A stretch of 64,000 nt of DNA, from the IMG/VR virus record IMGVR_UViG_3300030329_002830, positions 10,964 through 74,963 of that record; one strand, written 5' to 3'. Source of the DNA: a virus. Below, piece by piece: positions 57,315 through 62,413 of this stretch (position 1 is its first letter; every line of letters starts with the position of its first letter). A program made the position numbers and the translations under genes. The notes beneath the pieces are model-generated. The model worked only from the letters and a program-made list of their open reading frames with translations, searched no databases and was not told the DNA's origin.

Positions 57315-57834
57315 CCGCCCCGGGGGAGCGTATCCCCCGCCGCAACCCGTCAGATCGTATGGCCCCCGGCGTGCAAACCCAGGCGGCCCTGCCTTGTTCC
57401 CCTTGCGCGGAACTGCACAGGCGATCTAACGGGGGGGCCGGGGGCTTTCCCCCGGTCCCATCTCCGAACATAGCCTCCGGCTGGGTTCCCCCTGTGTACA
57501 GGGAGGGGTTGAGCCCAGCCGTTGAGGCGAGTCTACCCCGGCTGCCCCGCAGCATATCATCAACCCTCACCGCTCCCCCGTTGTGCCGGTTCCCCCTGGG
57601 GTATCGGCCAGCGGGTGGGGCAAAGGCAGCCCCATCGAGGTCAGGCACCGCCGGATTCGGCCCAGCCCATGACCCACAGGCAGCCCCGAACTACCGATTC
57701 TGAGTCGCGCATATCCCGCCTTGCCCCTGGCATATCGCCAGATGCGGCATCCCCTGAGAACGGGGCGAGCGAGGGGCGCGGCGTCAAGAGAACCTTACCT
57801 CAACGTCAAGAAACCTTTACACCTGGAGTCCACC

Positions 57835-57930
57835 ATGGGAACCCTTCAAGACCGATACGACAACTATGTGCGATGCATGATTGACCTTGGCCAGCCGTAT
57901 GTTGACTTTGACACCTGGCTGAACCGCTAA
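57835..57930 (+). CDS. 31-aa protein
   Basis: GGAG RBS; MGTLQDRYDNY...FDTWLNR. Confidence 0.6.
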   Translation: MGTLQDRYDNYVRCMIDLGQPYVDFDTWLNR

Positions 57931-57944
57931 CCCTGGAGCCCACC

Positions 57945-58166
57945 ATGTATGAGTTCATCACCAACGACCCCGCCGATGGCAAGCAGCTTTGGCGGGTGAC
58001 CGAGTGCAAGACCTGCGAGGGTCGCGGCCGAATCTGGTACCCAGGTTGCGGCGACAGTGCAGCCACCTGCCAGGAGTGCGATGGCGCTGGCGAGGTTGGC
58101 AAGTATCGCAAGATCGACTTCAGAACCGGCAAGCCCTATGGCCCGTGGCGGTCTGACTGCCACTGA
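57945..58166 (+). CDS. DnaJ-type CxxCxGxG zinc-finger small protein
   Basis: CKTCEGRG and CQECDGAG; GGAG RBS. Confidence 0.7.
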   Translation: MYEFITNDPADGKQLWRVTECKTCEGRGRIWYPGCGDSAATCQECDGAGEVGKYRKIDFRTGKPYGPWRSDCH

Positions 58167-58181
58167 CCCTTGACAAGTAAA

Positions 58182-58454
58182 GGGACAGGGGGCCACCGTG
58201 TCCCCCTTGTGGGACACTGAATATCACAGGGTCAACCGGCAATATCCTGGGTGTCCCTACCTGTCCCCCTTGTTTCTGAAAAGAAACCTGACCCTACCTG
58301 GGCCCTCTCGCGCCCCCCTCCCTCTCTATTACTACCCCCCCCTACTTTCTTAGAGTAGGTAGGGACAGATAGGACAGAGTCCAACTATCCAGGTTGAACC
58401 GTACCTATTTACAGTCCCCCTGACCTGACCTAACCGTTGTCACGTCAAGGGACT
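58182..58454. repeat. GGGACA/TGTCCC repeat cluster (putative origin or operator array)
   Basis: About nine exact or near copies in both orientations in non-coding DNA. Confidence 0.6.
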
Positions 58455-58513
58455 GGGGGCCACTTTCATGCCGAAGCGGACACATTATGACCGCCTTTGG
58501 CCTTGTACCTGAC

Positions 58514-58542
58514 TTGACCATCCACCTGCCCGTAACTAAATG
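58514..58542 (+). promoter_or_regulatory. Probable early promoter TTGACC-17-TAAATG
   Basis: Lies upstream of the CAACAACAGGAG leader. Confidence 0.5.
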
Positions 58543-58567
58543 TAGGGCAGCAACAACAGGAGTTCCC

Positions 58568-58699
58568 ATGAGCACGACCACCTTCAACGCTTTCCGACGC
58601 CGTGGCTACCGAGTCGTGAACCTGCGCCGCTGCACCCCGGCTGCCCAGGGTAGCCGCCCGGTTCAGATGCTCGCCCGAATCACTCCCCTCTCCCGATAA
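58568..58699 (+). CDS. 43-aa basic protein
   Basis: AGGAG RBS. Confidence 0.5.
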   Translation: MSTTTFNAFRRRGYRVVNLRRCTPAAQGSRPVQMLARITPLSR

Positions 58700-58769
58700 C
58701 TGTACGCCCTTGCTGCAAGGGTAGAGCAGCGCGAAAGCTAAACCATCTCAACAACAACAGGAGCCCATC

Positions 58770-59717
58770 ATGGCTAAGAAGAAGTTCGACCCGTACCAAG
58801 TGATCACCGACTCCATCATCGACGCGCTGGAGGCTGGCACCCAGCCCTGGCGTGCTCAGTGGAAGGGGCTTGGTGGTTCCACCCTGCGCCCCCTCAGCGG
58901 TGCGACCGGCAACCCCTACAAGGGCATCAACGTCCTGCTGTGCTGGGCTACCGCCCACTCGATGGGCTACTGGTCCAACCAGTGGCACACCTACAAGGGA
59001 GCCCAAGGCAAGGGCGGCCAGGTCCGCAAGGGCGAGAAGTCCACGCGCATCGTCAAGTGGCTGTTCTTCCCTAAGAAGGACGAGCGAGGCCAGCCGGTCA
59101 TCGGTCGGGACGGCCAGCCCGTTACCATCCCGTACCCCAAGCTGTACTCCGTGTTCAATGCCTGCCAGATTGAATGGGAAGAGGGCAGCGAGTACGCGCC
59201 TGGTCCCGAGCCCACCGTCGAGGACCACGATGGCTCCGAGGCTGGCGACAACCACAGCAAGGCCAAGGACGTGCTCGACGCATGGACCGAGGTGGTGCCC
59301 GTCGGGCATGGCGGCAACCGTGCGTACTACTCACCCACTGAGGACCGCATCCAACTCCCCCGCTTCGAGCAGTTCGAGGACGAGGCATCCTACTTCAGTG
59401 TGGCGTTCCACGAGGCTGGACACAGCACCGGGCACGAGTCTCGCCTTGACCGGGACTTCAGCAAGTCCAAGCGGTTCGGTGACCAGGCGTATGCCTTCGA
59501 GGAGTTGGTCGCTGAGTTGGCCGCCGCCTTCCTCTGCGCTGACTGCGGCATCAGCCAGCCCGCCGAGCCGAGAGCGGACCACGCCAGCTACCTGGCCTCA
59601 TGGCTCAAGGTACTCAAGGGTGACAAGAGGGCCATCATCAAGGCCGCATCCGATGCGGAGAAGGCTGCCAAGCTCATCCTTGAGAACGCCGACGTGGCCG
59701 AGATGGCCGCCAAGTAA
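58770..59717 (+). CDS. ardC: ArdC-family antirestriction protein (ssDNA-binding + zincin)
   Basis: PWRAQW, YKGINVL, GGQVRKGEKS, VFN, AYYSPTEDRIQLP, FHEAGHSTGH, YAFEELVAEL, HASYLASWLKVL. Confidence 0.93.
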   Translation: MAKKKFDPYQVITDSIIDALEAGTQPWRAQWKGLGGSTLRPLSGATGNPYKGINVLLCWATAHSMGYWSNQWHTYKGAQGKGGQVRKGEKSTRIVKWLFFPKKDERGQPVIGRDGQPVTIPYPKLYSVFNACQIEWEEGSEYAPGPEPTVEDHDGSEAGDNHSKAKDVLDAWTEVVPVGHGGNRAYYSPTEDRIQLPRFEQFEDEASYFSVAFHEAGHSTGHESRLDRDFSKSKRFGDQAYAFEELVAELAAAFLCADCGISQPAEPRADHASYLASWLKVLKGDKRAIIKAASDAEKAAKLILENADVAEMAAK

Positions 59718-59781
59718 GAACCCTCCGCAGTCCGGGGCCTGCGCAACAAAGCCCCGCCCCCTTCAACAACAGGAGCCCATC

Positions 59782-60018
59782 ATGACCCTCTTCACCACCA
59801 TCACCAAGGCCGTCGTGTCCCACCTGCTCTTCGGAGCCGCGCCATTGCTGGTGCTCATCCTCGCCAACTTCCTGGTCGAGCCCGACCGGGCATGGTTCAC
59901 CGGGCTGACCCAGACCCAAGAGCTTGGCGCGTGGGCCGCCCTCGCCGCCTGGTCCTTCTTCTCACTGCGCCTCTTCATCGTGCCGCTGGAGCGTGTCCAG
60001 CTTGGAGGTGCCAAGTGA
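59782..60018 (+). CDS. Small two-TM membrane protein
   Basis: AGGAG RBS; two hydrophobic helices. Confidence 0.7.
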   Translation: MTLFTTITKAVVSHLLFGAAPLLVLILANFLVEPDRAWFTGLTQTQELGAWAALAAWSFFSLRLFIVPLERVQLGGAK

Positions 60019-60296
60019 GCAGCGTCATCCACAGGATTGAGAGCGACGGCAAGCAGTCTTGGAGCAGCACCAAGAACAACGCCTACATCACATTCGACCC
60101 AAGCCGAGCGGGCAGCATCACGGATCCATACGTGGCGGCCCGTGTCGGTGACGGCAGCATGATGTGCGTGGACAACAGGGACTTTGTGTGGGCCTTCGCT
60201 GGCCTGGTCAGCGGACACACCAATGCCCCTGGGTACATGAAGACACTGGCACGCCGTGCCGCCAAGGACTTGAAAGCACAAGGAGGTGCCAAGTGA
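60015..60296 (+). CDS. Hypothetical early protein
   Basis: GGAGG RBS; GTGA overlap. Confidence 0.65.
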   Translation: MSSVIHRIESDGKQSWSSTKNNAYITFDPSRAGSITDPYVAARVGDGSMMCVDNRDFVWAFAGLVSGHTNAPGYMKTLARRAAKDLKAQGGAK

Positions 60297-61684
60297 ACCC
60301 GCAAACCAAGCTCATCATCGACCGTGACTACACCGGCACCATCGAGCGCCGTGAGCGTGACTACATCGCGACCGACGCCGATGGCACCGAGCACACCACC
60401 ATCCGTGTGCCCACCGCCAACCTCGCACAACTGCACAAGCGGTTCGACAAGCTGGTCAGCAAGGCCAGCCGCCTGGGCCTCGATGCCCCGGTGCTGACCA
60501 AGGTGGGCGACATCTCAGTGCCCAAGCGCAACGAGGCAGACGTAACCGTGTGGCACCGCTACGCGCTGTTCACCCTGGTCGCCAAGCCCGTCCACTTCGA
60601 TGGCTGGTCCTTCGTCGCCGCCATCCAGCACGTCGCCACTGAGGACGGCTACCGCAATGTGGTCCGCACCTCGCCCCACTTCGAGGGCGCTGCGGTGGAC
60701 CCCATCATCCGCACCTCACGTCCGGTGTGCGAGCACTGCAACACAGCACGCAAGCGCAACGATACCTATGTCATCCAGCACGACGACGGCTTGCGCAAGC
60801 AGGTCGGTCGCCAGTGCCTGCGGGACTATGTAGGCGAGGCCACGGGTGCTGAGATCCTGCGCTCTGCTCAGTACGAGCGTGAGCTTAGCGACTTCATCGA
60901 CGACGACTGGGGCGCTGGCTCCAGCGGCATCAGTGCCTGGGATGTGCGGGCTGTGCTCGCCATCACGGTGGCATCGGTCGAGCTTCGCGGCTGGACCAGC
61001 CGGGGCAACGCCCGACAGTTCGGCTACCATGCCACTGCTGACCATGTCCTGGGTACCCTGACCGAGACCGACGACAGGCGGAAGTGTGTGGAGTGGGACC
61101 AGGACGGGCCCAACTTCGTAGCCCCCTGGGGTGACGCTGAGCGCGAGCAAGCCGACGCCATCATCGAGTGGACCGAGGCCATCGCTGACGACACCGACAG
61201 TGACTACCTCTGGAACCTCAAGGTGGCCTGCTCCCTGGGTGGCATCACCTACCGTGAGCTTGGCATCGTGTGCAGTGCGGTCGCTGCCTACCAGCGGCAC
61301 GTCAAGGGTGAGCGGCTGCGCCGTGAGCGTGAGGTTGCCGCCAAGGTGAGCGCTGCCATCGGCAGGGCCGGTGACAAGATTGGCCGCAAGCTCTCCGCTG
61401 CGGACAAGCGCAAGGGTGCTGAAGCCCACGCTGCACTGACCGTCACGGTCAGCGACACTCGGCTCTTCGACGGTGACTATGGCACCAAAGAGTTGGTCTC
61501 GATGACCGACACCGAGGGCAACGTGCTCAAGTGGTTCGCCTCCGGGCGGGCCAACTCCGACGACGGCGAGCGGGTGGTGGTGGGCAACACCTACACCCTG
61601 GTCGCTACCATCAAGGGTCACGGTGAGTACCGTGGCGTGACTGAAACCAAGGTGAACCGCTGCGTCCTGACTCCGGCGCAGTGA
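60293..61684 (+). CDS. Phage protein with Cys cluster and C-terminal OB-fold-like domain
   Basis: CEHC..RKR..KQVGRQCLRDY; DTEGNVLKW..ATIKGHGEYRGVTETKVNR. Confidence 0.75.
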   Translation: MNPQTKLIIDRDYTGTIERRERDYIATDADGTEHTTIRVPTANLAQLHKRFDKLVSKASRLGLDAPVLTKVGDISVPKRNEADVTVWHRYALFTLVAKPVHFDGWSFVAAIQHVATEDGYRNVVRTSPHFEGAAVDPIIRTSRPVCEHCNTARKRNDTYVIQHDDGLRKQVGRQCLRDYVGEATGAEILRSAQYERELSDFIDDDWGAGSSGISAWDVRAVLAITVASVELRGWTSRGNARQFGYHATADHVLGTLTETDDRRKCVEWDQDGPNFVAPWGDAEREQADAIIEWTEAIADDTDSDYLWNLKVACSLGGITYRELGIVCSAVAAYQRHVKGERLRREREVAAKVSAAIGRAGDKIGRKLSAADKRKGAEAHAALTVTVSDTRLFDGDYGTKELVSMTDTEGNVLKWFASGRANSDDGERVVVGNTYTLVATIKGHGEYRGVTETKVNRCVLTPAQ

Positions 61685-61734
61685 CTTCACCCGGCCCCCT
61701 TCGGGGGGCCACCCACCTTCAACAGGAGACTGAC

Positions 61735-62070
61735 ATGACCACTACCCCGACCACAAACACGTTCGACATCAGCGCCATGGGACGCGAGGGCATCTCGCTT
61801 CGCGAGCGTTCGCGGGTCATCCGTGGCGAACTACAGCGGCTGCTGACCGACCTTATGAAGCCTGGGGCCCAACTTTCCAGCGAGGCCATGCAGCAGCGCA
61901 TTAGCGATGCTGAGTGGTTCCTGGTCTTGTTCGACGACTACCTTGGAGAGACCCTTCCCGGCCCCCCCACCGACGAGGACGAGGACGAGGACGAGTTCGA
62001 CTACGACGACGATGACGCCCACGCGCCCGCCAACAACGACCAGGACCCGCGCCCGGTGCGCCTTTCCTGA
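61735..62070 (+). CDS. Early protein with a highly acidic tail
   Basis: AGGAG RBS; DEDEDEDEFDYDDDD. Confidence 0.7.
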   Translation: MTTTPTTNTFDISAMGREGISLRERSRVIRGELQRLLTDLMKPGAQLSSEAMQQRISDAEWFLVLFDDYLGETLPGPPTDEDEDEDEFDYDDDDAHAPANNDQDPRPVRLS

Positions 62071-62131
62071 AGCGCCACAACAACCAACAGGAGACTGACA
62101 TGACCTTCAACAACAACCGAGAGGTGACATC

Positions 62132-62413
62132 ATGAAAAAGCCAACCAATGCCTACGACGCACTCAGAGACACACTGCGCGGCAGCAGCGTCCAGGTCGAT
62201 GTGTACTGCCAAGTCCAAGAGTTCGAGAGCCGTCCCCGGTGCCACGAAACGGTGATGGCCTACGACGGTGACGTAGGGGCTTTCGAACCGGACAGCGCGG
62301 AGCGAAACCTGAAGCGAAAGGGCTGGGTCTACCGGCACAACCCTGACGAGTACGGGTTCTCCCAGTGGGTCTGCCCCGCCTGCATCAACCGAGAGGTGAC
62401 ATCATGCCAGTGA
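62132..62413 (+). CDS. Hypothetical Cys-containing protein
   Basis: GAGGTG RBS; GW...WVCPAC. Confidence 0.7.
   Translation: MKKPTNAYDALRDTLRGSSVQVDVYCQVQEFESRPRCHETVMAYDGDVGAFEPDSAERNLKRKGWVYRHNPDEYGFSQWVCPACINREVTSCQ

Follow-up and report, generated by a model that had tools for sequence, protein, structure and literature searches.

The phage genome and its accessory gene array

The virus record IMGVR_UViG_3300030329_002830 of IMG/VR, from an uncultured marine phage, carries an array of small + strand genes in which short direct repeats, located at the translation starts, flank single genes. These repeats, here called junctions, and the gain and loss of the genes lying between them are the subject of this work. 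The stretch analysed (the window, 64,000 nucleotides, nt) comprises bases 10964-74963 of the 74,963-bp record; positions in the window are preceded by w, and those marked genome or g refer to the whole record. The ends of the record overlap by 73 nt, CheckV rates it as 100% complete, and its join is crossed by an independent contig (L023, 99.84% identity), the match of which spans w61424 to g580. Over its first 14 nt the record shows the junction TGAGAGGAACAGAT again and not the sequence preceding the overlap at the other end (genome 1-87, w63928-64000); an edge effect of the assembly, arising at a short repeat, is the probable cause. The runs that hold the phage are marine metagenomes from seven studies.

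Genes on the − strand, at about w8.3k-55k, include those of the large terminase subunit and of virion proteins, and an open reading frame (ORF) of 3500 amino acids (aa). An N4-like identity was guessed from this ORF and dropped, as PHROGs gave no support. The small + strand genes extend from about w56.8k, across the join, to about genome position 18.7k, and among them are those of ArdC, a VapE-like protein, a helicase, YqaJ and RecT. The G+C content is 59-64% in w54000-64000 versus 50-58% in the remaining window, and the accessory arrays differ compositionally from the structural genes. Near and distant DNA searches of INPHARED gave no related reference phage, ArdC alone being matched, in Caulobacter phages; nor did a tblastn search with a candidate structural protein (w40752-41759) find one.

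Junction repeats and their families

The preliminary description of this DNA had listed five repeat pairs, each around one gene. All five are present on the + strand and each encloses one ORF, in order of 31 aa, 315 aa (ArdC), 93 aa, 111 aa and 93 aa. Pair 1, CCTGGAG(T/C)CCACCATG, matches at 15 of 16 positions and extends to 26 nt at 81% identity; its first copy (CCTGGAGTCCACCATG, w57822-57837) is the leader and start of the 31-aa ORF (w57835-57930), and its second (CCTGGAGCCCACCATG, w57932-57947) those of a 73-aa gene (w57945-58166) with a weak match to the DnaJ CXXCXGXG zinc-finger domain (21.4 bits, under the 32.7-bit cut-off). Pair 2, CAACAACAGGAGCCCATCATG (21/21), supplies leader and start to ardC from w58752-58772 and to a 78-aa gene (w59782-60018) from w59764-59784; the ArdC-like anti-restriction gene itself (w58770-59717) encodes ArdcN and zincin metallopeptidase domains. 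In pair 3, GGAGGTGCCAAGTGA (15/15), the first copy (w60004-60018) encodes the upstream C-terminus GGAK and its stop codon, and contains the Shine-Dalgarno (SD) sequence and a GTG start overlapping that stop. It opens a 93-aa gene (w60015-60296), at the end of which the second copy (w60282-60296) provides the start of a 463-aa gene (w60293-61684, PHROG 2319). This 15-mer was found twice in the window versus 0.01 times expected from window shuffles. Pair 4, CAACAGGAGACTGACATGACC (21/21), begins with the leader and start (w61720-61740) of the 111-aa acidic gene (w61735-62070). Here the preliminary description has to be corrected, since the second copy (w62085-62105) is an orphan leader that heads no gene, only an 11-codon mini-ORF (w62100-62135) with a TGA stop that overlaps the next gene's ATG. 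Pair 5, CAACCGAGAGGTGACATCATG (21/21, or 24 nt with one mismatch), starts the second 93-aa gene (w62132-62413) at w62114-62134 and, from within the 3' end of this gene (w62386-62406), a 183-aa gene (w62404-62955). Every pair is spanned, with no or one difference, by contigs from samples not flagged as source of the record (X11, X5). Tandem duplication was rejected as origin of the repeats, the adjoining genes having no protein similarity.

Relatives, namely IMG/VR and metagenome contigs, were retrieved with the 463-aa protein, whose gene differs in its 5' junction by lineage. A related-locus search with the 93-aa gene gave no further relatives, and one with a 103-aa cassette gave only copies of the relative R1. 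R1 was merged from two contigs (L001 and L002) overlapping by 4,069 nt with 2 mismatches; its arrangement is confirmed by L147 and L148 and thus stands in four IMG/VR contigs from different samples.

The five pairs are the most visible part of about six local junction families, seen in this genome and in relatives and composed of SD sequence, spacer and start codon and often also of the last codons of the upstream gene. These are J1 (CCTGGAGyCCACCATG), J2 (CAACAACAGGAG-N5-6-ATG, with a CAACAACAGGAG core common to many leaders), J3 (GGAGGTGCCAAGTGA), leader A (CAACAGGAGACTGACATGACC), J4 (AACCGAGAGGTGACATCATG) and J5 (GGGAGGTGAGTGATG, six genes at genome 7289-8530). J3 is found again at genome 1475, 2671 and 2979, across the circular join, likewise after proteins ending in GGAK, and local leader variants include GGAGCCCATC, GGAGACTGAC and GGACAACGAC in addition to J3 and J5. 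The motifs GGAGGTG, GGAG or AGGA within the junctions we take to be putative SD cores. J3 (GTGA), J4 and J5 (TGATG) and both mini-ORFs of the array are stop/start overlaps with the SD sequence inside the upstream gene, and J1, J2 and leader A are intergenic and non-overlapping. Junction repeats are confined to the + strand accessory arrays. Among the exact repeat pairs of at least 13 nt in the 17.4-kb + strand array, 18 of 47 have both copies on a start junction, junction windows making up 3.8% of the array sequence; most of the other pairs lie in a repeat array at genome 6078-6508. A search of IMG/VR with the exact J3 15-mer returned single matches in more than 118 contigs, by our own estimate about the chance level for a collection of that size, and multi-copy arrays in the relatives only, so the family was not widened.

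The second mini-ORF (w63935-63985, 16 codons, peptide starting MSGP) has a TGA overlapping the ATG at w63982, which, judged by homology to R1, is the true start of the join-crossing gene ending at genome 536; a similar 16-codon MSGP mini-ORF is present at R1 16644. We interpret orphan leaders with their mini-ORFs as sites, empty or collapsed, from which translation is still coupled to the following gene.

Similarity of neighbouring leaders

It had been claimed that the spacer between SD sequence and start is shared only between neighbouring genes. Over positions −21 to −1 before the start, adjacent + strand genes of this genome agree at 8.71 of 21 positions versus 7.14 for non-adjacent ones, a difference reached by 2 of 10,000 shuffles. 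The spacer alone (−6 to −1) gives 2.62 versus 1.73 of 6, and the + strand of R1, over −21 to −1, gives 10.66 versus 7.53 (each 0/10,000 shuffles). No such effect was seen over −21 to −1 for the 51 − strand genes (6.12 versus 6.11; 4,993/10,000 shuffles, p about 0.5), in whose leaders the longest exact shared run is of at most 10 nt. Leader similarity falls with gene separation. The greater likeness of adjacent leaders was thus borne out, and the strict exclusivity has to be given up, since J3 recurs 5-7 kb downstream.

In each genome (this one and R1) an orthologous gene has a leader of the type seen at the genes next to it. Four genes in a row in R1, among them ardC, have a GGACAAC-type leader, and the R1 463-aa gene is also of this type. 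To judge by these leader sequences, the pattern resembles concerted evolution more than the outcome of selection for a strong SD sequence.

Breakpoints in relatives and in natural populations

Comparison with the relatives showed that gene content and order are fluid along the array. With F1 for the 463-aa gene and F2 for ardC, the order of gene families is F2, F1, F9, F10, F11, F12, F3 in this genome and F1, F2, F11, F3, F10, F12, F9 in R1, and it also differs between this genome and the contigs L010 and L021. In all relatives that reach ardC (L001/L002/L011, L003, L004/L018, L010, L016, L021) this gene lies 3' of the 463-aa gene. The architecture is more pronounced in R1 than in this genome: J1-type leaders precede six genes, after which comes an orphan leader with an ORF of 2 codons; J3 junctions follow one another in a run, and an exact 24-nt leader stands on both sides of the 463-aa gene. 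J3 is kept in relatives whose 463-aa protein is just 58-63% identical.

The preliminary description had proposed that presence/absence breakpoints would fall in the repeats, and the ends of both gene presence/absence and relocated segments do cluster there. When homology blocks of at least 85% identity and at least 100 nt were counted, 30 of the 49 block ends, which are not independent events, fell within −25 to +8 of a start, versus 8.3% for random positions. The homology of ardC to the relatives starts at w58752-58753, the first base of the repeat or within one of it. Genome 2669-2994, with J3 at both ends, shares 95.7% identity with R1. On the 3' side of the 463-aa gene, homology continues across a hairpin into the next leader, where it ends between the SD sequence and the first codons, and the gene behind that leader differs between the window, R1, L010/L021, L016 and X13, a run from another study. 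Identity of cassettes to R1 ranges from about 68% to 96% and that of backbone blocks of at least 100 nt from 65 to 81%, which suggests separate histories.

Recent differences are those between L010 and L021, whose shared blocks are about 97-99% identical and which are separated by five events in about 7 kb. Two genes present in L021 only lie between exactly matching copies of an 18-nt J3 repeat. A module, also in L021 only, has imperfect 13-nt repeats at its flanks, and the same motif, CAGACCC(A/G)TGTCCG, occurs at w62957 and w63427 around a module of the window (w62957-63440, + strand) with a small gene (about w63048-63359). A replacement has J3 at its left and J5 at its right end. The two remaining events are taken up below.

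Gene-lacking forms, which the preliminary description expected as deletion junctions with a single repeat copy, were found in other marine metagenomes, and the alignment tables fit one retained copy. An X13 contig joins w57821 to w57932 with loss of the 31-aa ORF; 7 letters at the joint can be assigned to either side, as would be the case if one J1 copy had stayed. In the same contig w58563-58698 is replaced by 291 other letters directly after CAACAACAGGAG; the stretch swapped, from leader core to stop, belongs to a J2 leader and its 43-aa ORF (w58568-58699; both together w58551-58699, + strand). A second X13 contig joins w60018 to w60299 and so lacks, at this site, the 93-aa gene that the J3 copies enclose; in L010 and L021 that gene lies 3' of the 463-aa gene. 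Less secure is a small contig of run X7 joining w61738 to w62085, which would be a 365-nt deletion between the copies of leader A, with a single repeat aligned to both sides. Loose contig ends at w57948, w60298/60300 and w61738 carry other genes behind the same leaders. High depth of X11 at w61771-62021 was ignored, being probably attributable to a low-complexity GACGAG repeat.

Probable gene exchange at translation-initiation junctions

The junction families, the reshuffled gene order, the clustered breakpoints and the gene-lacking variants support crossover at the translation-initiation site, as the preliminary description had it, and we consider it probable that genes of the array are gained, lost and moved by crossover at junctions with repeats of 15-24 nt. 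Junctions, made of an upstream gene tail or short spacer, SD sequence, spacer and start, are conserved and link unrelated small accessory genes of the + strand. The same 15-24 nt junction recurs at either end of a gene and would be present in co-infecting relatives too, so that a recombination within it could remove, insert, swap or move the whole gene, and after the exchange every gene would keep a working ribosome site. The exchange would be a short-homology homologous recombination, most plausibly performed by the YqaJ-like exonuclease (w4486-5406, +) and the RecT annealing protein (w5407-6264, +) of the phage, which are the candidate catalysts. Both genes of this pair had been pointed out together with the lack of an integrase, and indeed neither tyrosine nor serine recombinase domains (PF00589, PF00239) gave a match in the 74,963-bp genome, in which no integrase or resolvase was found. 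Insertion may go through excised circles, a route proposed by Arbiol et al. (PMC2839356) for the promoter-early stem-loop (PeSL) cassettes, in which a circle is cut out and inserted again at a different copy. The genes of the array are presumably expressed early. The view that the array serves anti-defence genes holds for ArdC and could not be extended to the others, ArdC being the sole gene of recognisable function among the ten scanned in w56.8-64k.

A wider proposal can be put forward only tentatively: the junctions would be maintained as YqaJ/RecT recombination sites of an integrase-free exchange, through which co-infecting relatives could trade single counter-defence and host-takeover genes at a high rate with expression kept, a translational analogue of integrons and PeSLs that would be widespread in uncultured phages.

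Several points weigh against crossover at the junctions. Repeats of 15-24 nt are at or below the minimal pairing segment of Red-beta, 23-27 bp (PMC3945230), and each event would therefore be rare. Of the five events separating L010 and L021, one is off any junction, and another, a gene in L010 only, ends at two start codons that share just TG; consequently, illegitimate recombination followed by selection also contributes. Selection by itself would already place part of the breakpoints at gene borders, the 49 block ends lose weight by their non-independence, and in the more distant relatives L003 and L004 the neighbour effect is weak or non-significant. The wild variants come from assembled Logan contigs, and their retained repeat copy was read from tables and not from the contig letters; the w60018-60299 joint skips 280 nt where the repeat spacing is 278 and may be inexact, and the shorter side of the X7 joint has 30 letters. 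Finally, the gene calls were made with a codon-score and SD heuristic of our own and not with a standard gene finder.

Selection on the translation signal surely acts on the junctions as well, and the leaders might be kept only as translation signals, be it as optimal SD/spacer/start contexts or as binding sites of a host or phage factor, turnover being due to illegitimate recombination with selection keeping the joints at gene borders. This explanation accommodates the GGAGGTG, GGAG or AGGA motifs of the junctions, the ATGA, GTGA and TGATG overlaps, which fit translational coupling, the persistence of J3 beside so divergent a 463-aa protein, and the event with TG microhomology only, and it has a precedent in the start-associated sequences (SAS) of cluster K mycobacteriophages (PMC3203893). 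We nevertheless hold it to be unlikely, because it fails to predict spacers that match those of the neighbours instead of a genome-wide optimum, the weaker SD variant GGACAAC over consecutive genes in R1, L010 and L021, orphan leaders without a gene, and variants that lack a gene and apparently keep one copy of the repeat. More doubtful still is that short-patch gene conversion evens out nearby leaders by local concerted evolution, the repeats having no causal part in gene turnover. The decrease of leader similarity with distance and the adoption of the neighbours' leader type by orthologous genes would follow from it, but the repeats are tied directly to changes of gene content by gene-lacking forms with an apparent single copy and by cassettes that moved from one junction to another; moreover, conversion and crossover are outcomes of one recombination, which makes of it a sub-case more than a true rival. 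That assemblers fused phage strains at short repeats is very improbable: although all sequences are metagenome assemblies and Logan contigs break near some repeats, 15-24 nt is under the 31-letter words of the run index (assembly word lengths being assumed similar), the window arrangement is reproduced by the independent contigs of X11 and X5 and by L023, and that of R1 by its four contigs. Crossover at the junctions is the explanation that we prefer for these genes.

Comparison with known systems

Phage mosaicism is usually ascribed to random illegitimate recombination followed by selection, and well-documented cases of exchange directed by short conserved boundaries, PeSLs being one, are few. 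In integron cassette arrays, unrelated small genes come, go and change their order one by one at the short sequences that bound them. The array described here shares with them the single direction, the unrelated small genes and the turnover of single genes at short boundaries, but it is not an integron, since no integrase, and in particular no IntI-type tyrosine recombinase, was found. Its boundary is a ribosome-binding/start site with direct repeats; structured sites of the attI/attC type were not identified at the array boundaries, where no systematic attC search was made.

PeSL cassettes occur in hyperplastic regions of T4-type phages (Arbiol et al. 2010, PMC2839356; Comeau et al. 2014, PMC4122927). 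In both cases short conserved regulatory sequences flank small non-essential ORFans and the indels and replacements of relatives map to them, and in both a recombination between flanking copies has been proposed to move single genes with expression kept and with no dedicated integrase. PeSLs, however, are transcription units of about 100 bp with a sigma-70-like promoter and a terminator stem-loop, whereas the junction here is a translation-initiation sequence of 15-24 nt, often inside the upstream coding sequence; a consensus scan of w56000-64000 revealed no strong sigma-70-like early promoter, and there are several array-specific junction families instead of one motif. Mini-circles, each with one gene and one chimeric motif, have been physically shown for PeSLs.

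The SAS/ESAS of cluster K mycobacteriophages (Pope et al. 2011, PMC3203893) are likewise asymmetric motifs with an SD core near the start codons of unrelated genes, positioned 3-7 bp upstream of the starts, in one orientation and only in the non-structural genes or half of the genome, and the same holds for the junctions. SAS differ in being one 13-bp consensus genome-wide, GGGATAGGAGCCC, which none of the at least six local families matches; furthermore, identity between junctions takes in the spacer and the initial codons, and the presence or absence of genes maps to the junctions. The linker-homology model with Rad52-like annealases (De Paepe et al. 2014, PMC3945230) also explains mosaic joints by homologous recombination at short conserved sequences with the aid of RecT-like proteins, but it concerns homologies of hundreds of bases in temperate phages and prophages rather than a 15-24 nt translation junction in arrays of single genes. 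As regards translationally coupled genes, J3, J4, J5 and the mini-ORFs have the stop/start overlap of that class.

The system hence resembles PeSL shuffling and SAS but belongs to neither, since no promoter and no single genome-wide consensus were found. A full-text search of the literature returned nothing relevant on phage gene cassettes bounded by direct repeats of ribosome-binding sites. Characteristic of the present case are the joining of unrelated genes (ArdC and the 463-aa gene among them), the occurrence of several junction families, both intergenic and overlapping, and the polymorphism in natural populations. Because the boundary is the ribosome-binding/start site, any exchange leaves translation intact, and presence/absence polymorphism reaches about 5 events per 7 kb in wild marine populations at about 97-99% shared-block identity. 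Crossover at such junctions offers a concrete, testable route by which phages could renew accessory genes such as ArdC, and points to a practical rule by which the limits of unknown-gene cassettes could be set in viral metagenomes.

Other features of the array

In w56000-64000 the promoter consensus scan detected no promoter-like site, predicted promoters and terminators being no more numerous than in shuffles, and Rfam gave no match at E values up to 0.1. Inspection by eye showed a hairpin of the GGGG...CCCC type near w61690-61712, before an intergenic leader, and one like it before each of several leaders of L003 and L004, all without T-tracts; the overlap-type junctions have none. Two gene-free blocks, w57537-57778 and w58166-58562, precede the J1 and J2 arrays and are 81-87% identical to R1, above many genes; they may be promoters or regulatory RNA. 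The second block contains a 34-nt direct repeat (w58163 and w58430, 82%) with TTGACA-like boxes, and inverted repeats around GTCCCTACCT. Promoter-like repeated elements (TGCCCTACTTGAC; CCTGACTTGACCATC...) precede several leaders (genome 579, 1340 and 4472; w58508), and one copy in R1 reads TTGACC-N17-TATAAT.

In w63028-63359 a canonical leader, CAACAACAGGAG, is followed by ATC where the start codon is expected. A small ORF with relatives in L004, L010 and L021 is in frame with this ATC; either translation begins at a rare non-ATG codon, or the gene's start codon has been lost. The C-terminal part of the 111-aa cassette protein (w61735-62070) is strongly acidic, rich in Asp and Glu, and from its composition one might guess at a counter-defence candidate of the DNA-mimic type. 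The last 30 nt of the 463-aa gene (w61655-61684) show no difference between the window, R1 and L004, whereas overall protein identity is only 57-85%; a constraint at the nucleotide level or a recombination patch may be responsible.

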